This document shows positions 6,731-29,172 of a DNA stretch of 64,000 nt, piece after piece. Position numbers and translations under genes: made by a program. The DNA is from Candidatus Omnitrophota bacterium (GTDB lineage: Bacteria; Omnitrophota; Gorgyraeia; Gygaellales; Profunditerraquicolaceae), in assembly GCA_041651115.1 (NCBI GenBank), contig JBAZJY010000005.1:6405-70404 (forward strand), read 5' to 3'. The notes under the pieces were generated by a model. The model was given only the letters and a program-made list of their open reading frames with translations, was not told the origin of the DNA and made no database searches. Position 1 is the first letter of the stretch. Each line of letters begins with the position of its first letter.

Positions 6731-6795
6731 ATGTCCATTGACAATCCCTATCTTTAATGATATTCTGGCTTTATAAATGTCCAATCTGAGGAGAG
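6731..6795 (+). promoter_or_regulatory. pair of AATGTCCA(A/T)T boxes overlapping a candidate sigma70-like promoter and RBS for the 6797 gene
   Basis: Boxes at 6731-6741 (aatgtccattg) and 6775-6787 (aaatgtccaatct). TTGACA (6738-6743), 17 nt, then TATTCT. GAGGAG RBS 6788-6793 before the ATG at 6797. The same box recurs at 21313, 21343, 29131 and 29161. Confidence 0.4.
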
Positions 6796-6796
6796 C

Positions 6797-8323
6797 ATGG
6801 GGGTTGTCCATAAATTAACACCGGAAGTCAGGCAATTTGTCCTTGAAAAAAAGCAGCTTAACCCGGAATTAAGCTGCCGGAAGATCAGTTCATTGGTTCT
6901 GGACAAATTCCAGTTCAAGCTCTCCAAGTCCAGCGCCAATGCCATATTTAAGGAAGCAGGTTTAAGCTTAGCCGTAGGCAGGCGGCGCAGCCGCGCTCCG
7001 CTGCCTAAATCTAAACCGTTTATTTATTCCGGCCTTGCGCTTTTTAAAGCCGCGGACAGTATGTTCGGCGGCTCCTTTCATATCAGCGAAGCAATAAAGC
7101 GCGTTGCCGGCGACCCGGATGCCGCGTTAAAAACTGAAAGCCTGCTTGAAGCGCATATCCTGAAGTCCGCGTTAGGCCTGCCGGTGAGTTGGCCTCAATC
7201 TTTTGCCGGAAGTCTTAACCGCAATTCCGGCCTGCTTTCAGAGATCAGCCAGGTATTAAAAAATATCAGCCAGGTCGCCGGCGGTGTTAAAGCCGTTACC
7301 ACCGACGGAAAAGAATTCTATCTTGACGGCCAACTGCACACGCTTTGGCAATCCTCTCAAATCCCGTCTGCGCTTTCCTGCCCTGCCCATAATTTAGAGC
7401 AGCGTATCCTGCAGCAGGCCAAAGGAAAACTGCCGTTCGTACTTTTTTTTGCCCCGGGATTTCGTGAGCCAACGCAGATGTTTTTTGATTTTATCCGCGG
7501 CTTCTCCGATACAGAAAAAAAATTTTCCCACTTCGTTGCGTATAATTATAACCTTGAAGAGCTCAAAAGTATAAAGCTTCCGGAGCCTGCAGGAATAATT
7601 TTCGGCATCTGGCCGTGGCAATTCAAGGAATATATAAAAATAAACGCTGTCTCCGGAATTAAAAAATTTGAATTTGCTCCGCTTAAAAAAGAATTTTTTA
7701 TCTCCGCGGTGGATGTTGAGCTTAAGCAGCCAAAACTGGATGCGACTTTGCATTTTAACGGCTGCCTGCTGAAAGCAAACGCGGAAGAAAAAACCGGTTT
7801 AATTGTTTTAGGCAGCCCGCAGCCCGCAGCTAGTGATCCTGCGGCCCTGGCTAAGGCTTACCTGGAGCATTGGCCTGACCCAACAGGCTCTTTTCAAAGC
7901 TTTAGCCGCAAGGTTGAGGCATCAACCAAGCAAAAAGATACGCAAGACAACGGGGAAGAGACCACATTGTCATTGCGAAGTGCCGCAGGCGCTGAAGCAA
8001 TCCCAATCCCCGGCCTCGATTCCTTACTTGATAACTATCTGAAAACATTAGAGTTATATGTTAGAGATAACCTGCTGCCGGGTAAATATTCAACTGAAAG
8101 CGCGACAATAATAAAAGAGCGTTTTTACCTGTTTGAGTGCGGCCTGACAAAAACAAAAGATAATCTATTTATAAATTTTAAACTTTCCCATGAAGCCGAT
8201 TCTATAAAAGACATTACCTATATCTGCAATCAGGTTAATGAAAAAATAATAATTATGCCTGACAGCCGCAGGCTTTGGCTGGCAGTTTGCTTAGAAAACG
8301 CTTTCCCGGAGGCAGGCAAATGA
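6797..8323 (+). CDS. hypothetical protein with N-terminal helix-turn-helix-like domain
   Basis: 508 aa. The first ~60 aa (LTPEVRQFVLEKKQLNPELSCRKISSLVLDKFQFKLSKSSANAIFKEAGL) look like a homeodomain / transposase-N-type HTH. The rest has no recognised domain. Sits directly downstream of the box pair and hairpin repeat. Confidence 0.5.
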   Translation: MGVVHKLTPEVRQFVLEKKQLNPELSCRKISSLVLDKFQFKLSKSSANAIFKEAGLSLAVGRRRSRAPLPKSKPFIYSGLALFKAADSMFGGSFHISEAIKRVAGDPDAALKTESLLEAHILKSALGLPVSWPQSFAGSLNRNSGLLSEISQVLKNISQVAGGVKAVTTDGKEFYLDGQLHTLWQSSQIPSALSCPAHNLEQRILQQAKGKLPFVLFFAPGFREPTQMFFDFIRGFSDTEKKFSHFVAYNYNLEELKSIKLPEPAGIIFGIWPWQFKEYIKINAVSGIKKFEFAPLKKEFFISAVDVELKQPKLDATLHFNGCLLKANAEEKTGLIVLGSPQPAASDPAALAKAYLEHWPDPTGSFQSFSRKVEASTKQKDTQDNGEETTLSLRSAAGAEAIPIPGLDSLLDNYLKTLELYVRDNLLPGKYSTESATIIKERFYLFECGLTKTKDNLFINFKLSHEADSIKDITYICNQVNEKIIIMPDSRRLWLAVCLENAFPEAGK

Positions 8324-8468: not shown

Positions 8469-8500
8469 GCAGCCGGCAGTATTCTGCCGGCTTTTTATTT
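8469..8500 (+). terminator. Rho-independent terminator-like hairpin just upstream of the first pilin gene
   Basis: Perfect 9-bp stem agccggcag / ctgccggct with loop tatt, followed by TTTTTATTT. It lies 10 nt before the pilin RBS (gggag), so it could also act as a 5'-UTR attenuator. Confidence 0.6.
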
Positions 8501-8510
8501 GGGAGTAAAA

Positions 8511-8834
8511 ATGATTTTTAAAAAAGCATTAAGCCAGAGTACCATTGAATATGTGTTGCTGGTGGCAATCACTATAATCGCGCTGGTGGTAGGAGCGAAT
8601 TTTGTTGATCAGATCAAGGGCGGTGCGTTTCAGGCGCATTTTGATGCGGCAAAACCCTTTGTAGCCGGGGAAACAGTTATCTATACCGCGCAGCCTGAGG
8701 CTCCAAGTAACACAGGCAGTACGGGAAATGTTCCGGCGGGCTGTGAATCCTGCCCCAATGATTGCCAATTGTGGCGGACCCAGGTGGGGCCGGATATGCA
8801 GACTTATTGGCGGTGCCCGCCGAACAGAGGATGA
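8511..8834 (+). CDS. Flp-type pilin paralog P1 with a 4-Cys C-terminal extension
   Basis: GGGAG RBS. Class-III leader MIFKKALSQSTIEY followed by the hydrophobic helix VLLVAITIIALVVGA. C-terminus GCESCPNDC...WRCPP. Confidence 0.6.
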   Translation: MIFKKALSQSTIEYVLLVAITIIALVVGANFVDQIKGGAFQAHFDAAKPFVAGETVIYTAQPEAPSNTGSTGNVPAGCESCPNDCQLWRTQVGPDMQTYWRCPPNRG

Positions 8835-8835
8835 G

Positions 8836-9306
8836 ATGATAGATCTGTTAAAGACGACAAGAAAACTAGCCCAGAGCCTTATTGAATACGTGATGATCTT
8901 TGCGATCGTCGCTGCGGCGCTGGGGGTAACTTATAAATATGTTTACCGTTCAATGAACGCGCGTTTGGATGATATACAGGATGTGGTAACTCCTGACCGG
9001 CCTGACGGCGGCAATTGGGATCTGCCCGACGTTGATCCGCCGGATGATCCTGAGCCGCCGAATACGGATTTAGAGAGTTGCCTTGCCGGTAATGACGCGG
9101 AATGTAACCAGCGTTTACAAGAAGGCATAGAATATTGTTGCGTGGAGTGTTGCGGCGCTGTTATGGCTGCTTGTAATGCTAATCCAAGCGACAGCGGTAT
9201 TTGTAACCCGGGTGCTCCCAGTAATGGTTGCCGCTATCCAGAGATTACCAATTGTCAGCAAAGCGGTGAGGCCCAGAGGGATATTTGCTGCGAGAATAAA
9301 TATTAA
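8836..9306 (+). CDS. Flp-type pilin paralog P2 with a 12-Cys C-terminal domain
   Basis: ATG 1 nt after the P1 stop. Leader MIDLLKTTRKLAQSLIEY plus VMIFAIVAAALGV. Pro/Asp-rich linker, then 12 Cys including CC pairs (YCCVECCG, DICCENKY). Confidence 0.6.
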   Translation: MIDLLKTTRKLAQSLIEYVMIFAIVAAALGVTYKYVYRSMNARLDDIQDVVTPDRPDGGNWDLPDVDPPDDPEPPNTDLESCLAGNDAECNQRLQEGIEYCCVECCGAVMAACNANPSDSGICNPGAPSNGCRYPEITNCQQSGEAQRDICCENKY

Positions 9307-9322
9307 CGCGGGTAAAGAAAAG

Positions 9323-9841
9323 ATGAAGAGACCTTACAGATTAGCCCAGAGTCTTATTGAATACGTGATGATCTTTGTGATCGTCGCTGCGGCAGTAGGG
9401 GTAACTTATAAATATATTTATCGCGCAATAAACGCGCGCTTAAAAAACACGCAGGATGAGCTGAACTATAGCCGTTCTGTTGAGGGAGTGGAAGCAGATG
9501 AGTATAATGACGGCAGCGGAGATAAAATTGAGACTTCTGTCGGGAATACTCGTCCGGGCTGTGAGTCTTGCCCGGATAATTGTCGGTCGCGGGTAGTAGC
9601 AACAGGCCGCGGCGGACCTAGTGCGGGTAATTGGGGGGTTGAGTGGTATTGCGCACCGGCTACAGGCGGAAACACAGGTGGAGATACAGGCGGAAACACA
9701 GGTGGAGATACAGGCGGAAACACAGGTGGAGATACCGGCGGTGACACAGGTGGGAATACCGGTGGTTGTCCTGCCGGCTCGCATCGGGTTTGTCATCCAT
9801 GCGGCCGCGGGGATACTTGTTGTAATTGCGTAGGCAATTAA
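9323..9841 (+). CDS. Flp-type pilin paralog P3 with Gly-rich repeats and a 10-Cys C-terminal domain
   Basis: Leader MKRPYRLAQSLIEY plus VMIFVIVAAAVGV. GCESCPDNC motif shared with P1. (GGNTGGDTGG)n repeat encoded by a 30-nt DNA tandem repeat. C-terminal CPAGSHRVCHPCGRGDTCCNC. Confidence 0.6.
   Translation: MKRPYRLAQSLIEYVMIFVIVAAAVGVTYKYIYRAINARLKNTQDELNYSRSVEGVEADEYNDGSGDKIETSVGNTRPGCESCPDNCRSRVVATGRGGPSAGNWGVEWYCAPATGGNTGGDTGGNTGGDTGGNTGGDTGGDTGGNTGGCPAGSHRVCHPCGRGDTCCNCVGN
9655..9765 (+). repeat. 30-nt tandem repeat (about 3.5 copies) inside pilin P3, encoding (GGNTGGDTGG)n
   Basis: acaggcggaaacacaggtggagat acaggcggaaacacaggtggagat acaggcggaaacacaggtggagataccggcggtgacacaggtgggaat. Confidence 0.8.
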
Positions 9842-9897
9842 TGTTGAGCGATCTTAATATGAACAAAAAACAGCAAAACGAAGGAGGTGAAAGAGAA

Positions 9898-10095
9898 ATG
9901 AGAAAGATGAGAAGGGAAGGACAGAGTATTCTTGAATACACCCTGCTTTTGGGTGCGATAATTGCAGTAATCGTAGCGGTTTTATTAGGTGGCCAAAGCA
10001 GCATGAAAGGTAAGGTAGAGGATACGTACGATGCGTTTGGTAATGCAATAAGCAATACGGCAAACGATGCGGATATCGGCGTGCTTACTCCGTAA
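9898..10095 (+). CDS. canonical short Flp pilin P4 (66 aa)
   Basis: GGAGGTG RBS. MRKMRREGQSILEY with the G-XXXX-EY Flp prepilin motif, then LLLGAIIAVIVAVLLGG. Typical Flp size. Confidence 0.75.
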   Translation: MRKMRREGQSILEYTLLLGAIIAVIVAVLLGGQSSMKGKVEDTYDAFGNAISNTANDADIGVLTP

Positions 10096-10114
10096 CGGAT
10101 AAGGAGGTAGTAAA

Positions 10115-10507
10115 ATGTTTCTAAGGAAGAAAGGACAATCTACTGCCGAATACGCGATTGTCATCGGCTTAGTGATTGCCGTGGCAGCAGGCATACTTCA
10201 GGTTGCCTTAAAAGGCGGCATCCGGCAGAAGAATAAACAGGCTACGGATTATTTGGTTGGTGAGAATGACGGCACAGACGGCGGTGCAGGCGGCTACGCG
10301 GCAATGAACGCCCAGATCGCATTAGGTGATCCTGCTGAACTCTACACCCAGGAAATGCGCGATACTACGGTTTTAGGCGGAGATGCCAACTACGTAGATG
10401 AAAGCGTAATGCTTAAAGGCGGAGCAGAGGAAAGACGGCAGAAGCAGGTTACCGAGACAACAGCTGTCAGCGTAGAGGCTATTGAAGGCGTAACAACGGG
10501 GAATTAA
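10115..10507 (+). CDS. Flp-type pilin paralog P5
   Basis: AAGGAGGT RBS. MFLRKKGQSTAEY plus AIVIGLVIAVAAGILQ. Confidence 0.7.
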   Translation: MFLRKKGQSTAEYAIVIGLVIAVAAGILQVALKGGIRQKNKQATDYLVGENDGTDGGAGGYAAMNAQIALGDPAELYTQEMRDTTVLGGDANYVDESVMLKGGAEERRQKQVTETTAVSVEAIEGVTTGN

Positions 10508-10548
10508 ACCGTACCGTAGATCAAAAAGTCATAGGGAGGTGAGCAATA

Positions 10549-11004
10549 ATGTTAAGGCGCAATAGTGGTCAATCAATAGTGGAGTACGCTATTCTTTTAG
10601 GCGTAATCATCGCGGCCTTATTGATCATGCAGGCATTCATCAAAAGAGGCTATCAGGGCGGCCTGAAAGATTCCGCGGACAAGATGGGCGAGCAGTTTTC
10701 CGCAGGAAATACCACAATCAAACAGGCAAGGACAATGGCAGAGGATCAAACTATCAGGGAAGCAGTGGCAACTGATGATGAAATAGCGCTGTTTACCGGC
10801 GACGTAGGCATAGCAGACGTACCGCGTACGCTTGACGCAGGCGCTTATTCTTATAGCGAGCGCAGCCCGGTGGAAATAGCTTCTACCACGCACGTAGTAA
10901 CTGACAGCGCTGATCAGGAAGCAACAAGAAAAGACGCATACGCTAATGTGCAAGTGACCAACTTTCAGTTTGTCAGTCCTGATAGTGATTTTGAAAGGCC
11001 GTAA
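10549..11004 (+). CDS. Flp-type pilin paralog P6
   Basis: GGGAGGTG RBS. MLRRNSGQSIVEY plus AILLGVIIAALLIMQ. Confidence 0.7.
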   Translation: MLRRNSGQSIVEYAILLGVIIAALLIMQAFIKRGYQGGLKDSADKMGEQFSAGNTTIKQARTMAEDQTIREAVATDDEIALFTGDVGIADVPRTLDAGAYSYSERSPVEIASTTHVVTDSADQEATRKDAYANVQVTNFQFVSPDSDFERP

Positions 11005-11017
11005 TAAGGTGGAAAAA

Positions 11018-11209
11018 ATGAAAAGACCCCTTAAGAGAGGACAGAGTATTCTTGAATACGCCCTGCTTTTGGGCGCGATAATCGCAGTGATCGTCGCAGC
11101 TTTACTGGGCAGAGGCGGTATCCAGAGTAAGGTGAGGAATAGTTATGATACTTTCGGAGATGCGATTGAGAGCACGACAACTGATCTAACAAGCAGTGTA
11201 TTTAGATAA
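11018..11209 (+). CDS. canonical short Flp pilin P7 (paralog of P4)
   Basis: AAGGTGG RBS. MKRPLKRGQSILEY plus ALLLGAIIAVIVAALLG. 64 aa. Confidence 0.75.
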   Translation: MKRPLKRGQSILEYALLLGAIIAVIVAALLGRGGIQSKVRNSYDTFGDAIESTTTDLTSSVFR

Positions 11210-11221
11210 GGAGGTAGTAAA

Positions 11222-11581
11222 ATGTTTCTAAGGAAGAAAGGACAATCTACTGCCGAATACGCGATTGTCATCGGCTTAGTGATTGCCGTGGCAGCAGGCA
11301 TACTTCAGGTTGCCTTAAAAGGCGGCATCCGGCAGAAGAATAAAAAAGCAGTGGATTTCTTAGTCGGCGCAGGCAATGACGTTGCTGCCTTTAGCAATGC
11401 CGCGTCCACAGACATCCAACTCTACACCCAGGAAATGCGCGATACTACGGTTTTAGGCGGAGATGCCAACTACGTAGATGAAAGCGTAATGCTTAAAGGC
11501 GGAGCAGAGGAAAGACGGCAGAAGCAGGTTACCGAGACAACAGCTGTCAGCGTAGAAACAATTGACGCTGCAGGACAATAA
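11222..11581 (+). CDS. Flp-type pilin paralog P8 (duplicate of P5)
   Basis: RBS and first ~40 aa identical to P5, and the C-terminal ~45 aa are near-identical. The middle segment has diverged. Confidence 0.7.
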   Translation: MFLRKKGQSTAEYAIVIGLVIAVAAGILQVALKGGIRQKNKKAVDFLVGAGNDVAAFSNAASTDIQLYTQEMRDTTVLGGDANYVDESVMLKGGAEERRQKQVTETTAVSVETIDAAGQ

Positions 11582-11603
11582 AAAATTAGGGAGGTGAGCA
11601 ATA

Positions 11604-12059
11604 ATGTTAAGGCGCAATAGTGGTCAATCAATAGTGGAGTACGCTATTCTTTTAGGCGTAATCATCGCGGCCTTATTGATCATGCAGGCATTCATCAAAA
11701 GAGGCTATCAGGGCGGCCTGAAAGATTCCGCGGACAAGATGGGCGAGCAATATTCTGCCGGCGGAACAACGATCCATAAAAGGAACGCGTTAGGCGCGGG
11801 AGGCCAGCAGATCGTAGAAGAAGTAGCGACAGTAGACGGGTCATCGCCGCTTGCTACTCTTAGCGGGCTTACGCCGGTAGGCACAATCGGCGGCGGAAAG
11901 AGCGCCTATTCTCTGAATACCAGGACAGGCGATACGATGACCTCAACCACAAAAGTGGATACTGACGATGCCCGGCACGAAGCGACAAGAGTGGCGGATT
12001 ACGGCGATGTGTCCAGTTCGGGAGGTAATTTCGCGCTGAGCGATAACGTTGATTTTTAA
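11604..12059 (+). CDS. Flp-type pilin paralog P9 (duplicate of P6)
   Basis: RBS and first ~55 aa identical to P6. The C-terminal half has diverged. Confidence 0.7.
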   Translation: MLRRNSGQSIVEYAILLGVIIAALLIMQAFIKRGYQGGLKDSADKMGEQYSAGGTTIHKRNALGAGGQQIVEEVATVDGSSPLATLSGLTPVGTIGGGKSAYSLNTRTGDTMTSTTKVDTDDARHEATRVADYGDVSSSGGNFALSDNVDF

Positions 12060-12082
12060 GCAGCTAAAAACGGGACAGTGCA

Positions 12083-12409
12083 ATGTTTATAAAAAAGAAT
12101 GGCCAGAGCCTGATGGAATACGCGATACTCTTCAGCGTAGTCGCGGCAGCGCTGTTGATCATGCAGTTTTACGTCAAGCGCGCATACCAGGGCAGGATAA
12201 AGCAGGACGCCGATGAGGTTGGCCAGCAGTATTCTCCGGGCCACACTGCATCTTCGATTTATACCAATACGATGGCAACAAGCACGACCTGCATCGGCGG
12301 CAACTGCTTTGGCCAGGATATTCCCATGGGTATGACCGTGACGAGCGGCAGTACAAGCACGACAATGAGAAAACGGGAAGGGGTTGATTCCTTTGCTTCC
12401 GAGAGGTAG
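12083..12409 (+). CDS. Flp-type pilin paralog P10
   Basis: MFIKKNGQSLMEY plus AILFSVVAAALLIMQ. VKRAYQGRIKQDADEVGQQYSPG is paralogous to the matching segment of P6/P9. Confidence 0.65.
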   Translation: MFIKKNGQSLMEYAILFSVVAAALLIMQFYVKRAYQGRIKQDADEVGQQYSPGHTASSIYTNTMATSTTCIGGNCFGQDIPMGMTVTSGSTSTTMRKREGVDSFASER

Positions 12410-12764
12410 GGCATGCCGCAACAGCGGCTATAGCGTAGTGATGTGGGCAGCAATGTTTGCCGTAATGGTGGGCATGGTGCTTTTTTTCCGCACGCCGATA
12501 AAACGGGCGATGCAGGGGAAAATAAACGATATGGCTGATTATATGTTTTGGACCAAATGGGGCCAGGCGCGTGAGCAATATAAGGGCGATGACACCGGTT
12601 ATACCAAGACAGATACTACCACCATTTCAAGAACAGAACTGGCAGACCGGAGAGGATTTGTTACTTCGGCAATGGATATTTCCGTAGGCGACAGCACCTC
12701 AACTACCGGCGTGAATGACGGGGATCAGGACGCATTGAAAAGCATTGACCTTAACGCTATTTAG
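12384..12764 (+). CDS. degenerate pilin-like paralog, possible pseudogene
   Basis: RNSGYSVVMWAAMFAVMVGMVLFF aligns to RNSGQSIVEYAILLGVIIAALLIM of P6/P9 but the EY is lost, there is no in-frame ATG with an RBS (TTG/GTG only), and it overlaps the P10 stop. IKRAMQGKINDMADYM is conserved with paralogs. Confidence 0.3.
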   Translation: MIPLLPRGRACRNSGYSVVMWAAMFAVMVGMVLFFRTPIKRAMQGKINDMADYMFWTKWGQAREQYKGDDTGYTKTDTTTISRTELADRRGFVTSAMDISVGDSTSTTGVNDGDQDALKSIDLNAI

Positions 12765-12771
12765 CCATAAA

Positions 12772-13584
12772 ATGAAAAAGAATAGGCATAACGATCATAA
12801 AATAATGGGTCAGGCAGCAGTTGAGCTGGCTATTTTCGGCAGTCTGGTGGTATTGGCTTTTTCTGTCCTTATAATGTACGGCCAGCGTTTTGACAACCAG
12901 CAGGAAATAAAAATGGAAGCGTTCCGTCGTGCCCTGCAAAAAGCTTATGAGCGTAATTCAAGCGTAAGTTATACCTATAAAAAAGAAGGCCGTAACTTGA
13001 ACCTTTTCGGCGCGTTTGGCCGCGGCCAGCCCTCTACCGTAGTTTCCACGGCCAGCGTAATGTGGCAAAAAGGCGTATCCGGCGAGCAGGACAGCAGCGG
13101 AAAAGAAAACTTCGCTTATTACCGGATCAACGACTATATGGTAGGCGATGAGATGGGCCTTCCGCGTTATCCTAAACACGTAGAAAGCCTTAGCGGCAAA
13201 AAGGAAAGGGTCCGGGTGCCTGCCAGCGTTTATTCCGAGGAAACGGAAAGAACAGAGATTTACGGTTCCAGCGTAGGCAAGCGCGAGAGCGCTGCGAGCA
13301 TAATTAATACCGCGACTTCCGACTTGACCGATACCGTTTATACAAAATTGCATGTGCGCGTTGACCATTCATACGACGACAATCCTCATGACAATTCAGT
13401 GCCCTTACCGGACTATGCGTATGAAGATCACAGCTATGATAACGAAGGTTCGCAAACAGTCCAATCCGTGCCGGGGGTTTCTCTTGGCGCTTACTCTAAG
13501 GATGCTACCAATCGCGTGAGCTACCGCCAAGATCAGGTTGGCACAACCATTCACCGCGAAAGGACATGGCAAACTGATAATTAA
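12772..13584 (+). CDS. TadE/TadF-like pseudopilin
   Basis: N-terminus GQAAVELAIFGSLVVLAF matches the TadE-like signature (G-x-x-x-VE-F/L-A plus a hydrophobic helix). ~270 aa is typical of TadE/TadF. Confidence 0.55.
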   Translation: MKKNRHNDHKIMGQAAVELAIFGSLVVLAFSVLIMYGQRFDNQQEIKMEAFRRALQKAYERNSSVSYTYKKEGRNLNLFGAFGRGQPSTVVSTASVMWQKGVSGEQDSSGKENFAYYRINDYMVGDEMGLPRYPKHVESLSGKKERVRVPASVYSEETERTEIYGSSVGKRESAASIINTATSDLTDTVYTKLHVRVDHSYDDNPHDNSVPLPDYAYEDHSYDNEGSQTVQSVPGVSLGAYSKDATNRVSYRQDQVGTTIHRERTWQTDN

Positions 13585-13585
13585 T

Positions 13586-19473: not shown

Positions 19474-19487
19474 CCTAACCATACACT

Positions 19488-21260: not shown

Positions 21261-21281
21261 TGGGGAGTGTTATCAAGTACT

Positions 21282-21561: not shown

Positions 21562-24500
21562 ATGATGAATCCAACCTCATTACTTGAAAGAAGAAAAATG
21601 ACAAAGGCCGGATTTTTTACTTTCGGGTTTCTTAGAAAACAAAAATGGCTTAGCGTGATCCTGGCGCTGGCCTTTTTGCTTAATACTATTTCACCTGCTT
21701 TTGCGCGCGAGGGAAATTCCGGCAGACGGACTTCTCTTGAAATGTACGGCCTCGGCGCATTAGCCGGCTCCGCTTTAGGCGCCTCTATCCTTATCGGTTA
21801 TGAAACCGGCCAATGGTGGGGCGTTGCCGCTGCCGCAGCCGCAAATATGGCAAGCGACCTTACCGGCCTTGTGATGTATTACTATTTTTATGAGAGCTAC
21901 GGGGAAACCGCAACAGTATTCGGAAAAGAACTTAAATTCGGCAATGTAGAAATTAGCAAAGGAATGCTTTATTCAATGTATGCCGGAACGATCACCGGCG
22001 CGCTTGTTGGTATTGTGGGAGGCCTGGCCTCTGGTGCTTCCAGCGGCGCAAGTTCAAGCCTTGAAAGCGGCGCAAGTTCAGGCATTGAGAGTGCTGCTGC
22101 TAGCGCCGGGGAAGGTGCTGTGTCAGGCGCGGCTACCGGTGCTGCGTCAGGCGCGACATCTGGTGCTGTAGCAGGCGCAGCCAATAGCGTGATTACAGCT
22201 ATTGTGAATGCCGCAAAAGCCCTCTGGCAAGCTATCGTGAATGCAGCCAAAGCCATTTGGACAGCGCTTAAAAACGCTTGGCAAGCTATCGTGAAATTTT
22301 TTGATCGTCCTCTTAAGGAAATATTAAAGTCAGTCGGAAAAGCCCTTTGGGAGAACGTATTAAAGCCGATTTTAGAGCCTATCTGGAAGAATCTCATTAA
22401 GCCTATCTGGAACTTCATTACGCACCCCATTAGGACAATAAAGGATTTTTTTGCTAGAATCGCGAAAACTGCGGCAGACAACAATATTAATTGGTTAAGA
22501 GCAGCAATAAGAGTTGTGTATAAGCTTGATAAGCTTAAACCCGGCAGCGTTGCCAATCCTTATATCCGTTACGGAGCAGAACGCTCTTTTGGAGCTGCGT
22601 TTGCGCATTTAGTAGGCGACCTGGTTATTAATACGGCAAAGCTGTTTTTCAGAGAAACAATAAAGCAGAACCTTGAGAAAGGATTTGAGATCACGATTGG
22701 TAAAGGTAAGAATAAGAAAACGCTCATTGCAATTGACGAGCAAGATGAAACTATCGCCGAGATCGCTGCCGATATCGCAACCATATATTTTTCAGCATGT
22801 ATCACTCCGACAGTAAGGATACTTTTGGGCAACTTAATGCACGTGTATGGAGGCAAGGGCAAGTTTGTTCTTGATAACCAGGGCGGATACTTAAGTAAGG
22901 AAGGGGAAGGCTTTATTGATGAGGGCGTAACCTATGAAATTGACGCAGTAGAGATGAATTCTCAGGAAATCAACAGGCGCCTGGAAGCCAAGCAAATTAA
23001 GGGTGACGCAATGGTGAAAGTTACCCGTGACGGAAAAACCGAAGAGATAAAGGCTGAAGCGGTAGCCAATATGTTAAACGGCAAGAATTACACCGTTACC
23101 CTGCAAGCCGACGTAACTTTAAACGGCGAAACCGTGAAAGCCGGCACAAAGATAGCCGTTAATGCGACAGAGTTTACTAACCTTTGGCAGCAGGAAGGCG
23201 TGATCAACAAATCCGGTTCCGTAGATGTCACTAATACAGATGGAGTAACGCAGCAGATCAGCGCGGAGGCGGCATACGCAGGCGCAGTTAATATTTTGAG
23301 CGCCAGTTATACTGCCGGGATTACCATAGCCGCCCACGACTATTTCCAGATGCGGGAAAGTGAAACGATCAAAGAAGGCAGCACGCCTGTGCGCGTTACT
23401 TCTGCCGACAAAAAAAATCAGGTTGATACTACTGCCAAAGAATTAGACGGCGTTTTTAACGATACCTATGTGCAGCTGGAAATGGCCCGGCGGCTGGAAA
23501 ATAAAATCATTACTTTTCAAGACGCTGCCACCGGCGAACTGCATGAAATGAAAATGAGCGAGGTTGCCCGGGAAATAGCCCCGAATAAAGACGGCACAGT
23601 AGGCGTACAAAACGATAACGGCACTTATAGCGTAGTAATAAACGGCAAGGAAGTTATAGTTGACGCTGCCACATCTGCTCAACTGCACAGCAATCTTGTT
23701 GCCTACGCTACTATCATGGCAAGCAGTGCCCATCAGACCGCGCTCGCCTTAACCGGTGGACTCTTAAACGACATTCACGGCAATCCCGTAAGCAGTAAAC
23801 CGCTTAAGGCAGGCTTGCAGACCATGCGCAGCATCGGCCTGCATCCTCTTGTCGGCGCGGGAGTAAAAATACTTGCTTTGAAATTGATGAAGTACCGCAC
23901 GCATTACGGCGATGAAAGCGGCCGCGTTGCGGAAAACGCGAAAAAAATGGCAATTGCTGATTTCTTCGGCAATCTTGCTTCGTCAGCAGTGGCCAATTCC
24001 TCGCGTTTCAATACTTGGTATGCCGGCACAGATGAAAATCCATATGTGCAAAGGGGCGACTCCGGTGAATATTTAGGCAGGGAATATGCCCAGCGAATGG
24101 GCAAAGAATTTGTTACACAAACCGCCCTATTGGCCAATGAATTAGCTTGGGCAAATTATTGCAAGAAAAAAGACATTACTCCCGATGCGTTAGATGAAGT
24201 AAGGCATCTGGCAGCAGGTTCGCTTGTTAGCGGCTTGGTAGATGCAATTTACCGCCGCGATCCCGGCACCGTAGAGAAAAAAGACCAGGTGCTGGTAGAA
24301 ACCAGCGGTATGGCATCTGGCAACGGAGAGCTTATGTTTGTAGACCGCGACAGCCTTACCGAGAGCACATATGACAAAGATACCTTTTTATTCAAGGTTA
24401 ACGGCGAGGACCTAAGAGGTAAAATCAGAACACTTGATAATAAAGAAAAAGTATTCCTTAATGAAGATGACGTTCTCTTTGTCGGCGCCAAGGCGCCCGA

Positions 24501-27500
24501 CGACAACAAGAAGTGGTCTGCGGTAACATGGCAGACGAATAACGCTTCTGTAAAAACAGGCGGGCAGGTATCTTATAATGTTACATACGACGTGTCTTCC
24601 CGGCTTAATGATCCTCAATTCCAGAGCAGGCAGAATCTGACCGCTGGCAAGTTTGTAAAGAGCGTGGCGCAGGATTTCAATAACCATTTTATACAGGCGG
24701 CCGCGCGCAGCAGCCTGTATTTATCTCCGATGTTTACGCCCGGCACAGGCCCGGCAGGATTTTTGGCGCAGCAGCAGATGCAGGACCAGTGGATCCAGCA
24801 CATCCAAGGCATGGCGCAAGGCACTGGCCCGGGAATGCTGATGGCCAACCGCCTTGGCGGCAACATGCGCTATTATGCCAATATGAACGTTGCCGATTCG
24901 CTCGGCGCGGCAATCACCAATCGCTTTATGCGCCAGGAGCTGCGTTCTTATGCTACCTTCATGACTACGCAAGAAAAACTCCAGTATTTGCAGGTTACAG
25001 AAGAGAAAAATCTGAAACGGAAAGTAGAATTATTGGGTAGCCTGCGGGCTTTTAATAAAGAATATGGCGGTGACATTAATAAATTGAATGCAGACATAGA
25101 GCAGGCGAATATAGATCTGGCAACAGCGGAACAGGCCGGGCGCGTTGATGAGGTCAATACCATGCGCAAAGCGCTGGAGACGATGTACGGCATGGTAATA
25201 GCTGCAGATGAAGTTTTAAAGAAAGCTTACAGCCTGCAAATCGTCCGCGCTAACGAAGTTTATAGCCTTCCCGCAGAGGCGCAGTCAAGAATCTTTAATG
25301 ATTTAATGCCGGAAGTAATAGACGGCCTGCAAGCGGACGTAGATGCCTCTGCTTATAAGATTGGGGCCATGGAAAGGGCTAAGGGTTCGCTGGGCATACT
25401 CTCCAGCGTGCCTATCCTCGGCGCAATGATCCAGTCAGCCGTGCTTTCTAACCTGGCGACATCAACCGGCCAGGCGCAAGGCATAAATGATTTTATTATC
25501 GGCGGTATAGTTGATTATAATGTTGACCGCACTTTTGATATCTATGCGCCGATGAGCGGCTATACGGCAGGGGCGCTGGAAAGCACGGTAGATAACAGCG
25601 CGAAAACAACGCAGATGAGTGAAAAAGATAAACAGGCTTTCCGTTCGCTTTTAAAAGATCCCGAGCTCAGGAAGCGCAGCGAGCTTAGAAGCAATTATTC
25701 AATGTCGGTTGCCGGGGTTTATCAGGGCAGTGAAAGCTACGCCAATACTCCGCTTTTGAATGCAAGCGGCATCTCGCAGGAGGTAAGGTCAACAAGAATG
25801 GAGCTTAGGGAAGCCGAGACCGGCGGTAAGGCGCTGGTAGTAACAGATTCTACAAAAATAGATGCCATTAACGTGATTAAAGAAATGAGAAAAAATAACC
25901 CGAATGTTGAGGCATTTACTTATATACCGGAAGATAAGGATAAAACACCGGAGCAGGTTGAAACTGCGCTATATGAATTAAAGACCGGCAGGGTGTTGTT
26001 CTCCGATTATGGCCTGACCAGTCGCACCACAGTTGATCAGTTCGGCCGCGCCGTAGAAACCAGGCATTATGCCCCCGACTTTGTTTTTAGCGATATCGGG
26101 AGTGAATGGCAAACCGGCATAGAGCAGGATGTGATCACCCGGCATTATTACGGGCCGTTTGGCCACGCGGTTTCCATTACTACCGACTATACGCAGATAG
26201 GGGTTCCTGATGCGGATAACTGGCCGGGAGCAAAAGATTGGACTATCGGCATGGGCAAGGTATGGAATGATCTGGCCGCGGAATTCAAGGTTGTCGGCGT
26301 AACGCCCGAGCAGCTTGCCGGAAAATTAGGCATTGAACTCACTGGCCAGGAAAGCGCAGAAGAGCTGCAGGTTAAATTCACCAGCTTTCTGCAGGAAAAG
26401 CTCAAAGAAGGGCCTGATGCGATTGAGAAAATTGATGCAGATATTAAAACTTTTGCCGGTAGCTTAAATGTTGAGCCGAAGAATATCGGCGGCGATTTCA
26501 GCAATTATATTCCTAAGATCAAAAAATATGTTTATGCTACAGATCCCAAGACAGGAGAATACCGTACTGATAAATCCGGCCGCTTAATCCCTATCGGCAG
26601 CGTGCTTAACGCAAAGGCGGCGCAAACTCAGCGTTTCCTTGCTGCAGCGCAAAATTTAAGGGAGGGCAAACCTATAGAATATTCATACGCAGGTAAGGAG
26701 GATTATCAGGTAACCGCCCTCAAGGTTCCTCAAGAAGAAATTGATAAGAGCAGGGCTCTTGTGACCCAGGACATGCTTGAAGAATTTGCCGGCTTTGCAA
26801 CAGACGTATACGGTAAAAAGGTCAGGGCAAAGGATATCAACATGAATACGCCCTGGGGCGGCATCCTTGCGTATATGGCGGTTAACCCGCAGCCGGATGG
26901 CCGTAAATGGTCAGAGCTGACAACTGATGAAAAGCAGGACATCTTTGCGGGTGTAACTGCATGGAGGCTTCTAACCTACGGATTATACGCAGAGGATCCG
27001 AACGTAAAGCAAACCATTCCTAATAATCAAAGCACTTTGACCCTTTTCTTAGGCAGCGGCGCTGATCAGATCCGCGGCGCCAACTATTTATACGTGCCTG
27101 CGATCGCCGGGCAGAAAATGGAACCTTTGAAAACTACCCTAACCGGGCCCGAAGGCTATTATCAGCCGGTTTCTGTCGGCCCGAATTACAGCTACGATAT
27201 CAGTATTTATTCTACCGGAGAGGGCAAGACCCCGTATTCCGGGCCAAGCCACAGGGCCAGCGTCAGCGATATTAATTCCGGCCCCGCGCTCAATGCCGCT
27301 GCGCAGTACACGCTTCCGACAGATGCCGTTGAGCGGCAATTGCAGCAATTGGTTTATAACTTTGCAGCTACCGATTTTAAAGGCGCTGACCAGCGCGCAG
27401 AATTGATCGGCTTTATGAAAAATGAACTGGGTATAGACGAAGAAGATGCTATTGCAAAAGTAGATAGGTTAAATTCAAGAGAATATGGTAGAGAATTTTT

Positions 27501-29109
27501 GGAAGGCATACAGGAAAAAGTAGATGAATCCAGGATCAACCTTGATAAGATCACGCAGGCGCCGCTTACGCTTACTGCTACTACTGCGCAAACAGAAACT
27601 CCAAAACTAAAAACTCAGGCTCTTCCCAATATGTCTTTTCCGGATTTAGATAGAACTAAATGGGCAATGCAAAGGCTTGAGGGCCAGGATTTAGAAGTAT
27701 ATACCGCGGTGCAGAATAAACAACAGGAATTAAATAGCAATTTAAACCGCGACCTGTCTAATGTCAAACAAATGCAGTTCTTTGAATATAAGGATATTGG
27801 CGGCAGGACACTGATGCTTCCGACATGGGGCATGAGTATGGGTTCTGTTTTGCAGACGCGGGATGATGCTATGGCAGCTGCCATAAATCAGGAAGAATTA
27901 AGGTTCAGCAAGCTCATGGCCTATAATTATGACAGGCAAGGCATAGAAACTTCCATTGACAAAGGCTACAAGGAAGCGTTGGTTAGCGGCAATGATTTCC
28001 TTACTAACATGTTCAAAGAAACCAAGACCCTTCCCATAAACGGCCATAGCTTAGTAATGGAGCCTAATAATAATGGCATGTTGGGAGCTTTTTACGATCG
28101 TTCAACTACGGTTTATGTGCCGGGAGAATATGGCAGCTATGACGCCGCACTTCCCGAGGGTACCTACAAGTATGACGGAAGGGGTTCTGCGGATGTTATT
28201 CAGAGAAGCCAATTAAGGCTAAAAAATTCAGAAGAAGCAAAATTGGTCCCGTTAGACGGCAGGTCTACTTCTACGAACACGGCCGCGGCGCCGGTAATTA
28301 ATAATCCGCCGGTACAAACAGCGCCTGCGCCGGTTACAGGCCCTGACCTGCAGTCGCAGGAAGCAGAGCTTAAACCGCTTAAGCCTATCGTAAAACCTAT
28401 ACCAAACAATATTGATCAATCAATCCCGCTGTCCCGGGCATATCCGCAGCAGCAACCTGTAAGTGTTAATACAACCGTGCCTGAATTGACCGACGAGCCG
28501 GCAGTTGAAACAATAAAACAGGAAACTGTAACCGTACCCCAATATGACCTAAAAGATTACATCCAGCTTGAAACAGCTGTTTTGAATATGGCCCCTACCC
28601 TAGGCGTAGGCGACATCGGCTTCTTATCCCAATGCGCTCAATATGGAACAATCGATAGCGATAATATCAATAAGATCGTGCCTTTGTTTGCAGAAGCAAG
28701 AAAAAATGGCGCGATTGATGATATGGGGTTAGTATACCTAGAGCAGTTTATGTCTATTAAAAAGATACCAATAGTACCAGAGGGCTCTGTTCGAGAAGGT
28801 GACGTTACAGCACTTGCTTTGGCAGAAGAAGAAGCTCTCAAGCAAGGAAATGTAGTAGAGATCCCTCCTATCATAACTTCGGAAAATTCCGAGGCATTTT
28901 TTACCACAATAGGCAATCAAGATTTTGTCAATAGATTAGGGAGGAATAACGAAGCTATATATGGATTCTACTCGGCTTTGAATAAACTATCGGATAGCGG
29001 TAAGGTATCTCCAGACAATCTGTTGAAAGTCACGGATTATTTACGCGATCATCCAGACGAGATTGAGTATTCCCGCAGAACCGGTGAGCTAAGAGGTTTT
29101 GAGAAATAA
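21562..29109 (+). CDS. giant secreted/surface protein (2,515 aa), function unknown
   Basis: Uninterrupted ORF. N-terminal signal-like segment WLSVILALAFLLNTISPAFA. Gly/Ala/Ser-rich low-complexity block. Trp-containing amphipathic 11-mer repeats (AIVNAAKALWQAIVNAAKAIWTALKNAWQAIV...KPIWKNLIKPIWNF). Pro-rich segment near 28280-28400. No recognised catalytic motif. Confidence 0.7.
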   Translation: MMNPTSLLERRKMTKAGFFTFGFLRKQKWLSVILALAFLLNTISPAFAREGNSGRRTSLEMYGLGALAGSALGASILIGYETGQWWGVAAAAAANMASDLTGLVMYYYFYESYGETATVFGKELKFGNVEISKGMLYSMYAGTITGALVGIVGGLASGASSGASSSLESGASSGIESAAASAGEGAVSGAATGAASGATSGAVAGAANSVITAIVNAAKALWQAIVNAAKAIWTALKNAWQAIVKFFDRPLKEILKSVGKALWENVLKPILEPIWKNLIKPIWNFITHPIRTIKDFFARIAKTAADNNINWLRAAIRVVYKLDKLKPGSVANPYIRYGAERSFGAAFAHLVGDLVINTAKLFFRETIKQNLEKGFEITIGKGKNKKTLIAIDEQDETIAEIAADIATIYFSACITPTVRILLGNLMHVYGGKGKFVLDNQGGYLSKEGEGFIDEGVTYEIDAVEMNSQEINRRLEAKQIKGDAMVKVTRDGKTEEIKAEAVANMLNGKNYTVTLQADVTLNGETVKAGTKIAVNATEFTNLWQQEGVINKSGSVDVTNTDGVTQQISAEAAYAGAVNILSASYTAGITIAAHDYFQMRESETIKEGSTPVRVTSADKKNQVDTTAKELDGVFNDTYVQLEMARRLENKIITFQDAATGELHEMKMSEVAREIAPNKDGTVGVQNDNGTYSVVINGKEVIVDAATSAQLHSNLVAYATIMASSAHQTALALTGGLLNDIHGNPVSSKPLKAGLQTMRSIGLHPLVGAGVKILALKLMKYRTHYGDESGRVAENAKKMAIADFFGNLASSAVANSSRFNTWYAGTDENPYVQRGDSGEYLGREYAQRMGKEFVTQTALLANELAWANYCKKKDITPDALDEVRHLAAGSLVSGLVDAIYRRDPGTVEKKDQVLVETSGMASGNGELMFVDRDSLTESTYDKDTFLFKVNGEDLRGKIRTLDNKEKVFLNEDDVLFVGAKAPDDNKKWSAVTWQTNNASVKTGGQVSYNVTYDVSSRLNDPQFQSRQNLTAGKFVKSVAQDFNNHFIQAAARSSLYLSPMFTPGTGPAGFLAQQQMQDQWIQHIQGMAQGTGPGMLMANRLGGNMRYYANMNVADSLGAAITNRFMRQELRSYATFMTTQEKLQYLQVTEEKNLKRKVELLGSLRAFNKEYGGDINKLNADIEQANIDLATAEQAGRVDEVNTMRKALETMYGMVIAADEVLKKAYSLQIVRANEVYSLPAEAQSRIFNDLMPEVIDGLQADVDASAYKIGAMERAKGSLGILSSVPILGAMIQSAVLSNLATSTGQAQGINDFIIGGIVDYNVDRTFDIYAPMSGYTAGALESTVDNSAKTTQMSEKDKQAFRSLLKDPELRKRSELRSNYSMSVAGVYQGSESYANTPLLNASGISQEVRSTRMELREAETGGKALVVTDSTKIDAINVIKEMRKNNPNVEAFTYIPEDKDKTPEQVETALYELKTGRVLFSDYGLTSRTTVDQFGRAVETRHYAPDFVFSDIGSEWQTGIEQDVITRHYYGPFGHAVSITTDYTQIGVPDADNWPGAKDWTIGMGKVWNDLAAEFKVVGVTPEQLAGKLGIELTGQESAEELQVKFTSFLQEKLKEGPDAIEKIDADIKTFAGSLNVEPKNIGGDFSNYIPKIKKYVYATDPKTGEYRTDKSGRLIPIGSVLNAKAAQTQRFLAAAQNLREGKPIEYSYAGKEDYQVTALKVPQEEIDKSRALVTQDMLEEFAGFATDVYGKKVRAKDINMNTPWGGILAYMAVNPQPDGRKWSELTTDEKQDIFAGVTAWRLLTYGLYAEDPNVKQTIPNNQSTLTLFLGSGADQIRGANYLYVPAIAGQKMEPLKTTLTGPEGYYQPVSVGPNYSYDISIYSTGEGKTPYSGPSHRASVSDINSGPALNAAAQYTLPTDAVERQLQQLVYNFAATDFKGADQRAELIGFMKNELGIDEEDAIAKVDRLNSREYGREFLEGIQEKVDESRINLDKITQAPLTLTATTAQTETPKLKTQALPNMSFPDLDRTKWAMQRLEGQDLEVYTAVQNKQQELNSNLNRDLSNVKQMQFFEYKDIGGRTLMLPTWGMSMGSVLQTRDDAMAAAINQEELRFSKLMAYNYDRQGIETSIDKGYKEALVSGNDFLTNMFKETKTLPINGHSLVMEPNNNGMLGAFYDRSTTVYVPGEYGSYDAALPEGTYKYDGRGSADVIQRSQLRLKNSEEAKLVPLDGRSTSTNTAAAPVINNPPVQTAPAPVTGPDLQSQEAELKPLKPIVKPIPNNIDQSIPLSRAYPQQQPVSVNTTVPELTDEPAVETIKQETVTVPQYDLKDYIQLETAVLNMAPTLGVGDIGFLSQCAQYGTIDSDNINKIVPLFAEARKNGAIDDMGLVYLEQFMSIKKIPIVPEGSVREGDVTALALAEEEALKQGNVVEIPPIITSENSEAFFTTIGNQDFVNRLGRNNEAIYGFYSALNKLSDSGKVSPDNLLKVTDYLRDHPDEIEYSRRTGELRGFEK

Positions 29110-29130
29110 AACTAATAAAAATATTAAATT

Positions 29131-29172
29131 AATGTCCAATCTGAAATAAAATCGCTTATAAATGTCCAATCT
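29131..29172 (+). promoter_or_regulatory. two direct AATGTCCAATCT boxes, 30 bp apart, between the giant genes
   Basis: aatgtccaatctg at 29131 and aatgtccaatcta at 29161, followed by ttggttaagtca and hairpin repeat copy 5. Confidence 0.45.

Follow-up and report, generated by a model that had tools for sequence, protein, structure and literature searches.

The InsA protein of IS1 and the transposase/inhibitor of Tn5 bind transposon-end sequences that overlap the transposase promoter. Domesticated transposases are also known as DNA-binding regulators, represented in eukaryotes by FHY3/FAR1 and CENP-B and in bacteria by TldR, which is derived from TnpB. In RfaH/ops biology, the ops element is linked to unusually long transcription units. 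Earlier work has described both the giant genes of Omnitrophota and the Tad/type II-like secretion loci beside them, and Omnitrophota with giant genes are predatory bacteria. A 2026 preprint reports 176 complete Omnitrophota genomes. Two preprints on the giant genes say nothing about promoters, c-di-GMP, intergenic regions or sequence motifs. A literature search with four forms of the 12-mer described below returned unrelated matches only.

The window, the 64-kb stretch of DNA analysed here, is an Omnitrophota Tad-pilus/giant-gene locus. It contains 6 exact matches to the box AATGTCCAAWCT versus 0.02 expected, and 0/100 shuffles reached this number. The exact boxes are positioned at 6776, 21314, 21343, 29131 and 29161 on the forward strand and at 21284 on the reverse strand; all are intergenic and confined to three regions. 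A previous sequence-only reading counted seven copies in three intergenic regions. The three regions stand but the count does not, as the seventh is a partial copy with 9/12 matches. This copy, placed at 6731, is merely AATGTCCA followed by TTGACA at 6730-6741, and it is not recovered as a AATGTCCAAWCT box at up to 2 mismatches. Several of the coordinates were shifted by one position (the boxes given at 21283 and 21313 are at 21284 and 21314), and the spacings of 30 or 44 bp are corrected, start to start, to 46 (6730/6776), 30 (21284 reverse/21314 forward), 29 (21314/21343) and 30 (29131/29161). A logo of 75 copies defines a self-contained motif of ~14 nt, W-AATGTCCAAWCT-G, with no promoter hexamers at a fixed distance in the flanks. 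The box was rejected as a promoter element owing to this lack of a fixed -35/-10, with the giant-gene promoters lying 100-313 nt downstream.

The first region is the upstream sequence of the gene at 6797-8323, referred to here as the HTH gene. Its predicted sigma-70 promoter (6738-6766, forward) consists of TTGACA at 6738-6743, a 17-nt spacer and TATTCT at 6761-6766. The promoter-proximal box (6776-6787, forward) begins after a further 9 nt, with the Shine-Dalgarno sequence GAGGAG directly 3′ of it, and ends 9 nt before the ATG at 6797. The partial box AATGTCCATTGA (6730-6741, forward, 9/12) sits where relatives carry the promoter-distal operator, with the -35 TTGACA taking the place of its 3′ part. 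The overlap of a box with a TTGACA -35, as previously noted, is real in the form of this partial copy.

The same layout is found among relatives. A box is present at the gene's own promoter in 56/56 testable metagenomic homologues (27-57% identity to the 6797-8323 product), at ≤250 nt from the start in 55; in the 56th, the module has been displaced by an inserted gene cassette. The homologue loci L038 and L045-L049 likewise carry promoter boxes. Conserved across homologues is the order box, -35, N17, -10, box, Shine-Dalgarno sequence, ATG. Consensus prediction from sequence places a promoter of the TTGACA-N17-TATAnT type (10-12 of 12 matches) in 50/53 homologous upstream regions. Between the -10 and the proximal box there are 9-17 nt; a gap of 9 nt usually separates the end of this box from the start codon, and for exact boxes the gap is 8-10 nt in 32 homologous loci. 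Twenty-six homologous promoters have a full distal box, with 3-11 nt between its end and the -35, and in L047 a box lies inside the promoter spacer.

Exact boxes number 67 in 8.4 kb of upstream sequence versus 21 in 571 kb elsewhere, a 217-fold enrichment of the 150 nt upstream of family genes over the rest of the same loci. Of these 21 non-promoter boxes, fifteen are paired and precede giant genes, 9.6-10.6 kb farther downstream. Exact tandem pairs recur in ~25 Omnitrophota-type species-representative MAGs. In orientation, 84 boxes follow the direction of transcription and 4 oppose it. The box is over-represented, non-coding, conserved at the orthologue promoter and overlaps or abuts the predicted core promoter, as examined for an operator; the exceptions to its non-coding confinement are in-frame arrays inside parA and yidC of a few genomes. 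Judged from these upstream sequences, the conserved promoter boxes are the classic signature of an autoregulated DNA-binding protein.

The candidate cognate protein, encoded at 6797-8323 on the forward strand, has 508 aa, with an N-terminal HTH followed by a predicted Tn5-transposase-like core. The HTH is of the transposase type (residues ~9-53) with a basic GRR tail after it. Its N-terminal position had been recognised from the sequence alone and is supported by sub-threshold HTH_32/HTH_33 matches, by a match to the Pax paired domain and by the bundle of three helices that the models show. Pfam contains no family for the protein and gives only sub-threshold HTH_32, HTH_33 and HTH_Tnp_Tc3_2, the first two in 12-13 of 17 family members. 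Conservation within the protein is highest in the recognition helix, SKSS[IVA]N..K, and the GRR tail, and across this same range of relatives the core of the box does not vary; as both are nearly invariant, a covariation test between them is impossible. The family comprises 877 clusters at 50% identity, is unannotated and apparently Omnitrophota-specific, and carries a variable low-complexity linker of 0-350 residues after the HTH. No other DNA-binding protein could be recognised in the conserved locus, and in all loci examined the family gene lies between the DUF192 and pilin genes. This fixed place in the Tad-pilus/giant-gene locus points to a domesticated rather than a mobile transposase. 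An active insertion sequence was rejected due to the fixed position, the mostly direct repetition of the boxes and the absence of terminal inverted repeats.

Two independent AlphaFold models of the family (pLDDT 83 and 75) were compared with known structures. For both, the top six Foldseek matches are Tn5 transposase or inhibitor, at E-values of 1.7e-4 to 5e-2 and TM-scores of ~0.2. The best of these has an E-value of 1.7e-4 and a probability of 0.95, while the next non-Tn5 matches have E-values of 0.07-0.14. At the level of predicted structure, the Tn5 transposase/inhibitor is the sole credible PDB match of both models. A PDB sequence search with the protein gave no match, and hhalign of the family against an approximate Tn5 query gave no signal. 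Three acidic positions are conserved, D177 in 148/149 members, D/E223 in 130/149 and E363/E364, within the motif Y355-x2-R/H-W-P-N-L-E-E...K372, in most. They are candidate catalytic positions. The window protein has R223 and T363/G364 and is without two of these acidic residues.

The remaining boxes of the window are associated with large genes. In the middle region, the box at 21284-21295 (reverse) is co-oriented with the leftward PF05635 gene (20692-21102). The forward boxes at 21314-21325 and, 29 nt later, 21343-21354 are upstream of a large gene of 2515 aa (21562-29109, forward), 178 and 149 nt respectively before the -35 TTGATA at 21492 of its predicted promoter (TTGATA-16-TATACT, 21492-21519, forward). 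In the third region, the stop codon of the 2515-aa gene is followed after 21 nt by the box at 29131-29142 (forward). Another 30 nt on comes the box at 29161-29172 (forward), which is 231 nt before the -35 of the predicted giant-gene promoter (TTGACA-16-TATATT, 29392-29419, forward). The giant gene itself (29528-64000, forward) exceeds 11,400 codons and runs off the window; its N-terminus (..FKSKFKTWIRVVAFIVVAVFLPE) recurs in giant genes of other genomes that are likewise preceded by box pairs. A mini-ORF after three of the window boxes (MSNLK*, MSKLE*) was dismissed, as it is not conserved in other loci.

Every lineage with a giant gene has box pairs or triplets upstream of it. With 100-313 nt between them and the predicted giant-gene promoters (149-261 nt to the -35 at the two large genes of the window), they adjoin the stop codon of the preceding gene, the first distal box being located -24 to +29 nt from it at 25/26 sites with an identified upstream ORF. 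The earlier placing of boxes upstream of the large genes is therefore upheld as to position, but the boxes are not next to the large-gene promoters, which another motif adjoins. In L130 the giant gene and the distal boxes are both absent, and the single box of the 21-kb locus is at the protein's own promoter. An intrinsic terminator after the boxes is clear in L004, L012, L036, L042 and L090 and is not general, according to a crude scan.

The distances between boxes peak at 20-22, 29-31, 39-42 and 62-66 nt. The Rayleigh R is 0.48 at a period of 10, with a nominal p of ~4e-6 for loci that are phylogenetically non-independent. Spacings clustered at ~21, 30, 40 and 64 bp place the copies on one helix face, and the phasing proposed for the window is borne out by these peaks in related loci. 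The pattern fits recognition on one face of B-DNA and not RNA, and the box regions are without RNA structure (z ~0).

The boxes are probably double-stranded DNA sites of the 6797-8323 protein, which would be a domesticated transposase-like autoregulator tied to giant genes. The HTH protein had been suggested as the cognate regulator of the boxes, and the comparative evidence (56/56 promoters, geometry, 217-fold enrichment) strongly supports this. From the same evidence we infer both box binding by this protein and the sign of the regulation. The protein family would combine a transposase-type HTH with a Tn5/IS4-transposase-like core and have been domesticated. At its own gene, the proximal box closely follows the predicted start site, and the second often immediately precedes the -35. 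Since the boxes flank the promoter in a conserved geometry, their occupancy should hinder the binding or escape of RNA polymerase, which suggests negative autoregulation. The same protein would bind the two to three phased boxes at the 5′ edge of giant-gene regulatory regions, and giant genes would be tied to its concentration via these distal boxes. Candidate distal effects are a roadblock or insulator against read-through, looping, or tethering. Several observations sit uneasily with autoregulation by this protein. The L130 regulator, having no other target in its locus, would need sites elsewhere in the genome, and with 100-313 nt between them and a near-consensus promoter, the giant-gene boxes are too distant to act by simple occlusion. 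The 84:4 co-orientation and the fixed distance of 9 nt between box and start codon also suit a role at the RNA level, and the TM-scores of the Tn5 structural match are low (~0.2).

The assignment of the protein to the box is not unique, as a second motif, AGAAARCGYTTTCT, centred at ~-61, marks the pilin-operon and giant-gene promoters and is as conserved as the box. Its palindrome, AGAAAGCGCTTTCT, occurs exactly 22-23 nt before TTGAC at those promoters in 49 cases, and its window copies are at 8294, 21460 and 29360. With one visible DNA-binding protein in the locus, this protein could bind the palindrome instead of the boxes. Another factor, encoded elsewhere, would then bind the boxes and the 6797 protein would be one of its targets, itself binding AGAAAGCGCTTTCT to activate the pilin-operon and giant-gene promoters. 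Such an arrangement is rather unlikely, although the palindrome occupies a classical class I activator position just upstream of the promoter 3′ of the HTH gene, and L130 retains the HTH gene and the palindrome promoter without distal boxes. It requires an extra factor that always targets one gene, whereas autoregulation is the commoner reason for a motif at a DNA-binding protein's own promoter. The boxes, as asymmetric sites of varying number, spacing and orientation, resemble the monomer-bound end or subterminal sites of transposases and match the transposase-type HTH of the 6797 protein; the 14-bp palindrome needs a symmetric dimer. It is improbable that the box acts instead in RNA, at the Shine-Dalgarno sequence in the 5′ UTR of the HTH mRNA and after the stop codon in the 3′ UTR of the preceding operon, where a complementary RNA or an RNA-binding factor would recognise it and control translation or stability. 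The 9-nt distance from box end to start codon is fixed across clades while that from the -10 to the box differs (15 versus ~10), and both the co-orientation with transcription and the position of the first distal box at the upstream stop codon agree with such a role. However, promoter-distal copies lie upstream of the -35, and some within the spacer (L047), which keeps them out of the transcripts that this promoter starts. The spacings also follow the ~10-bp helical repeat of DNA, conserved RNA structure is absent, and the candidate binder is an HTH/transposase-like protein.

Very improbable is an ops-like non-template-strand element that loads a NusG/RfaH-type antiterminator for extremely long genes. 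The box does have 12 nt, is co-oriented with transcription, lies near very long genes and is sometimes in tandem. An ops element would be expected in the transcribed leader, but the giant-gene boxes are upstream of the predicted promoter and a polymerase that starts there never crosses them. The helical phasing points to duplex recognition, and no NusG paralogue was seen in the conserved locus. It is hardly credible that the box has no dedicated function and is instead a component of the REP-like hairpin, an uptake word, a DnaA box, a parS site or a repeat that arose by chance. The window boxes do adjoin copies of the GGTTAAGG hairpin repeat, but this link is specific to the lineage of the window. 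The pairing of boxes with each hairpin repeat, as first described, is incidental, since the hairpin at 19371-19490 has no box and boxes of other genomes have no hairpin; membership of a REP/MITE-type GGTTAAGG element was rejected for the same separate occurrence. Box arrays are found near the replication origin in five loci, where canonical parS and DnaA-box-like sites exist separately from the boxes. Likeness to a sigma-54 site, DnaA box, parS, CtsR site or Pho box was considered by eye and rejected. A DUS/USS-like uptake word was discarded because the density, counted in the window and the examined loci, is too low and the copies are clustered (6 in 64 kb; 21 in 571 kb outside the HTH promoters). 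The non-Omnitrophota matches of the genome scan are mostly true tandem repeats that plausibly arose by chance; enrichment and positional conservation exclude chance for the box itself. Matches in the Acidobacteria-type loci L010, L022, L033 and L037 and the Poribacteria loci L007 and L024 have extra shared flank. Rfam searches assigned no family to the boxes, and a cut-off as lax as E≤1 brought up no riboswitch anywhere in the window.

Beyond autoregulation by the 6797-8323 protein, a tentative proposal is that early Omnitrophota domesticated a Tn5/IS4-like DDE transposase whose end-binding specificity was transferred to chromosomal sites, with a role that exceeds repression. The sites set by this former end specificity would now be few, namely the promoter of the protein's gene, the arrays near the origin and the upstream edges of giant predation genes. 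As Tn5-type transposases pair two DNA ends and most members of the family keep candidate catalytic acids and long flexible linkers, the protein might bridge or loop distant boxes (10-22 kb apart, in the same orientation) or position the giant-gene locus. It might even nick or rearrange DNA there.

The box and its candidate binder family, the -61 motif and the c-di-GMP riboswitches in front of the pilin operon and giant gene together form a testable regulatory scheme for giant-gene loci. The box is a short marker for locating and annotating such loci in fragmented metagenomes. If the fold assignment is true, the protein would be a rare bacterial DDE transposase recruited as a sequence-specific chromosomal DNA-binding protein. 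If the bridging or rearranging role is true, genes of 30-250 kb would be subject to a novel layer of control.

Similar to the autoregulation of IS1 InsA and Tn5, the boxes are short sites near the -35 and past the predicted start, in phased copies and with a putative binder of the transposase type. Unlike those elements, the HTH gene is single-copy and syntenic in a conserved chromosomal operon, not mobile, and the boxes are mostly direct repeats, found also 10-22 kb away, without terminal inverted repeats. The apparent likeness to Tn5 (IS50, IS4 family) lies in an N-terminal DNA-binding domain, a predicted RNase H-like core with a beta-rich insertion and C-terminal helices, and the Y-x2-R/H-W...EE...K of the 6797 family resembles the IS4 'YREK' signature. 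The differences are the lack of detected sequence similarity, the TM-score of ~0.2, the immobile gene, an HTH that resembles the Pax/Tc1 type rather than the Tn5 N-domain, and the low-complexity linker of 0-350 residues after it.

As with FHY3/FAR1, CENP-B and TldR, the modelled family appears to join a transposase fold at a fixed location with conserved DNA recognition and an apparent regulatory role. It differs from them in its putative bacterial DDE Tn5/IS4-like ancestor with protein-based HTH recognition, and in the candidate acids (D177, D/E223, E363/364) that most members retain. What the boxes have in common with ops/RfaH is a 12-nt oriented element tied to unusually long transcription units. 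In contrast to ops, they would be phased duplex sites upstream of the giant-gene promoters, and their tightest link is to the promoter of the HTH gene.

The repeated 12-mer AATGTCCAAWCT, here termed the box, occurs as six exact copies in the window, at 6776 (+), 21284 (-), 21314 (+), 21343 (+), 29131 (+) and 29161 (+), where 0.02 copies on average are expected from dinucleotide-preserving shuffles. The sequence-only reading had counted a seventh copy at 6731. This is a partial AATGTCCA followed by TTGACA (6730-6741, 9/12), and is absent from a two-mismatch search. The accompanying statement that the boxes are confined to three intergenic regions is true of every window copy, and each is oriented like its next downstream gene. 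A logo of 75 copies from the window and related genomes describes a self-contained motif of approximately 14 nt, W-AATGTCCAAWCT-G, with no -35 or -10 at a fixed distance in its flanks.

The window is a Tad-pilus/giant-gene locus. Giant genes beside such secretion loci are already known in Omnitrophota (bioRxiv 10.1101/2023.11.21.568195; PMC10066038). The giant-gene preprints searched make no mention of promoters, c-di-GMP, intergenic regions or sequence motifs, and searches of the literature for 12-mer forms of the box gave unrelated matches only. Genes for a rotamase, RcpC, a secretin, a ParA-CpaF fusion ATPase and DUF192 (600-6608) are followed by that of a 508-aa protein without a Pfam family, the HTH gene (6797-8323), and by Flp-type pilins and TadB/C (8499-19373). 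Beyond these lie a PF05635 gene on the minus strand (20692-21102), a 2515-aa gene (21562-29109) and the giant gene, an open frame of >11,400 codons from 29528 to the window end. The pilin region contains a duplicated Flp-pilin module (9918-10507 and 11038-11581, blocks 88-98% identical, at a distance of approximately 1.1 kb) and, at 9637-9780, a coding tandem repeat with a 12-nt unit of the glycine-rich GGxGxT type. A REP-like hairpin repeat of approximately 120 nt (GGTTAAGGTTAAG..CCAGTATGGTA..; RNA MFE -52 to -62 kcal/mol, z approximately -7) is present in full at 6603-6725, 19371-19490 and 29199-29322, split at 20640-20697 and 21205-21262, and as a lone arm at 21383-21440. The arms of the split copy lie either side of the PF05635 gene, as if the gene were in the hairpin loop, a layout which recalls that of rRNA intervening sequences. 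PF05635 is the family of the 23S rRNA intervening-sequence protein, a four-helix bundle.

Conservation of the box system extends over many lineages of Omnitrophota. A profile search found the 508-aa family to comprise 877 clusters at 50% identity (E<=1e-3), 468 of these at E<=1e-30, and the source names given are Omnitrophota only; NCBI assigns a protein identical to that of the window to a Candidatus Omnitrophota MAG. In all loci examined, with identity down to 28%, the family gene is located between DUF192 and the pilin genes. A metagenome scan contributed 80 more loci, and the testable set consisted of 56 with at least 120 nt upstream. A box with no more than one mismatch is within 250 nt of the start codon in 55 of these; in the 56th (L073), the same box-promoter-box module is displaced upstream by an inserted gene cassette. 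The cassette, between this module and the HTH gene start, carries a GxxExxY-type gene. The 8,387 nt upstream of family genes contain 67 exact boxes, compared with 21 in the remaining 570,891 nt, so that their density differs 217-fold, and 15 of these 21 are pairs 9.6-10.6 kb downstream, before giant genes. Predicted promoters of the form TTGACA-N16-18-TATAnT (10-12 of 12 matches) are present in 50/53 upstream regions. The proximal box, between the -10 and the ATG, starts 9-17 nt past the -10 (modes 15 and 10); in 32 loci an exact proximal box ends 8-10 nt from the start codon, with GGAG directly after. A second box ends 3-11 nt 5′ of the -35 in 26 loci. The window promoter agrees with this plan: a partial box abuts TTGACA (6738-6743), followed by 17 nt, TATTCT (6761-6766), 9 nt, the box (6776-6787), 9 nt and the ATG at 6797. 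The repeats noticed from sequence alone are real, and their conservation at HTH-gene promoters supports the reading of the boxes as putative operators with the HTH protein as candidate regulator.

A separate scan, for two boxes 10-36 nt apart, covered 185,579 species-representative genomes (596 Gb) and gave 42 loci. Approximately 25 of them are in MAGs labelled Omnitrophota, or ‘Planctomycetales’ with the same gene content, and most of these pairs precede a giant gene with the window-type N-terminus (..FKSxFKxWIRVVAFxVVAVFLPE) or a very large gene of another type, beside rsmI. One locus (L038) reads TTGACA-N16-TATACT, 3 nt, box, 19 nt, box, 6 nt and the ATG of a 508-aa homologue. The other loci belong to unrelated phyla and are mostly true tandem repeats, for which a chance match to a 12-mer is feasible in 596 Gb. 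Four Acidobacteria-type MAGs of high G+C (L010, L022, L033, L037) share a common ‘AATGTCCAAWCTCCAG’ and a G+C-rich hairpin, while in Poribacteria (L007, L024) the 12-mer has an extra common flank, AATGTCCAAACTATAGT. Such 12-mers with flanks outside Omnitrophota seem too consistent for chance alone; no homologue of the HTH protein was found within these six 8-kb loci. Box arrays also lie in frame within essential origin-proximal genes. In parA of L006 (oriented coordinates 2569-2835), >10 boxes and box-like copies form a ParA insert of approximately 105 residues read as MSNL repeats. In yidC of L044 (4175-4306), the antisense reading gives RLDI repeats within the periplasmic domain of YidC, and in L005, L013 and L027 the boxes span the yidC stop (3′ end) and the jag start. 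None of the six reading frames of the box contains a stop codon, and canonical parS is separately present in these origin-proximal loci.

At the giant genes the boxes lie away from the promoter. The last box is followed, after 100-313 nt, by a near-consensus promoter (TTGACA-N16-18-TATACT) in 12 loci; the predicted window promoters are at 21492-21519 (2515-aa gene) and 29392-29419 (giant gene). Relative to the stop codon of the upstream gene (TadC, rsmI, large secreted proteins or a Y1 transposase), the start of the first distal box is at -24 to +29 nt in 25 of the 26 sites with an identified upstream ORF, so the boxes delimit a long regulatory region on its 5′ side. Distal boxes are absent from L130, a locus without a giant gene. 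FIST, HisKA and GGDEF response-regulator genes flank the locus in L130 and L001. Some genomes have a Y1 (IS200/RAYT-like, PF01797) transposase gene inserted after TadC and before the box cluster, or immediately 5′ of the boxes (L045/L046, 19906-20598; L030, 435-1115, minus strand). In L035, L041, L043, L062 and L018/L088, further short repeats, GGGACGTTTC and GGGACTGTCCCC among them, follow just after the distal boxes and before the giant-gene promoter.

In most related loci the giant gene is preceded by a c-di-GMP-I-GGC or c-di-GMP-I riboswitch which, where found by Rfam, starts approximately 25-35 nt past the -10; none is detectable by Rfam in the window. Loci with c-di-GMP riboswitches at the giant gene and/or pilin genes are L004, L009, L017, L019, L023, L028, L034-L036, L042, L045, L057, L062, L069, L070, L072 and L090, and in L057, L062, L069, L070 and L072 a second c-di-GMP-I riboswitch is located between the HTH gene and the pilin genes. 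Another motif, AGAAARCGYTTTCT, which is often palindromic over a perfect 14 bp, precedes TTGAC by 22-23 nt (counted from where its GAAARCGYT core ends) in 49 cases in 1.08 Mb. Its centre at approximately -61 from the predicted start is the position of a class I activator. It is found at the promoters of the pilin operon (just after the HTH gene), the 2515-aa gene and the giant gene, with window copies at 8294-8305, 21460-21471 and 29360-29371 and others at L045 20847, L057 2726 and 10961 and approximately 45 other loci; the promoter of the HTH gene itself lacks it. The window contains 4 matches to GAAARCGYTNYC versus 0.38 expected. The boxes would represent one of three putative regulatory layers around the giant genes, together with the -61 motif and the riboswitches. 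A protein bound to the distal boxes could serve as an insulator or roadblock, loop to promoter-bound copies 10-22 kb away, or have another role.

The candidate regulator is a member of a large family that lacks annotation and probably has a Tn5-like fold. Its N-terminal 60 residues are predicted to form a three-helix bundle, with sub-threshold matches to the transposase-associated families HTH_32 (13/17 members) and HTH_33 (12/17) and to HTH_Tnp_Tc3_2 (3/17), and a model-based match to the Pax5/Pax6 paired domain (prob 0.99). The best-conserved part of the protein is a helix, S-K-S-S-(I/V/A)-N...K, and the following G-R-R tail, after which comes a low-complexity linker of 0-350 residues. AlphaFold models were made of the window protein (pLDDT 83, pTM 0.78) and of another member, P0010 (33% identical, pLDDT 75). 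The top six PDB matches of both are Tn5 transposase or its inhibitor, with E-values from 1.8e-3 upward for the window model and from 1.7e-4 for P0010 (prob 0.95); the next matches are at E 0.07-0.14. As the TM-scores are low (approximately 0.2) and sequence methods give no signal, Tn5/IS4 ancestry is likely but not proven. The predicted core order beta-beta-beta-alpha-beta-alpha-beta fits an RNase H-like core, and the family motif Y-x2-(R/H)-W-P-N-L-E-E...K is reminiscent of the ‘YREK’ signature of IS4. Of 149 members, 148 retain D177, 130 have D or E at 223, and the majority have E363/E364; at the latter two sites the window protein carries R223 and T363/G364. The gene is not a mobile element, since its synteny is fixed and inverted terminal repeats are absent.

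Action of the box at the RNA level is a minor alternative, in keeping with its near-universal co-orientation with transcription (84:4) and its fixed distance of 9 nt to the start codon. However, promoter-distal boxes lie outside the transcript of that promoter, and no RNA structure is predicted in the box regions (z approximately 0). The starts of neighbouring same-strand boxes are clustered at 20-22, 29-31, 39-42 and 62-66 nt apart. For the 54 pairs below 60 nt, a Rayleigh peak is found at a period of 9.5-10.5 nt (R = 0.48), with a nominal p of approximately 4e-6 that is only indicative, the loci being phylogenetically dependent. This bears out the helical phasing proposed earlier: the period is expected for binding to one face of B-DNA, and is without meaning for RNA.

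It has also to be considered that the HTH protein binds the AGAAARCGYTTTCT palindrome and another factor the boxes, as the conserved locus has two motifs and a single recognisable DNA-binding protein. This assignment is unlikely, since a motif conserved at the promoter of a DNA-binding protein is most often its own site. The HTH protein is therefore favoured as the putative binder of the boxes, which, besides their conservation at its promoter, resemble the monomer-bound end sites of transposases in being asymmetric and variable in number and spacing.
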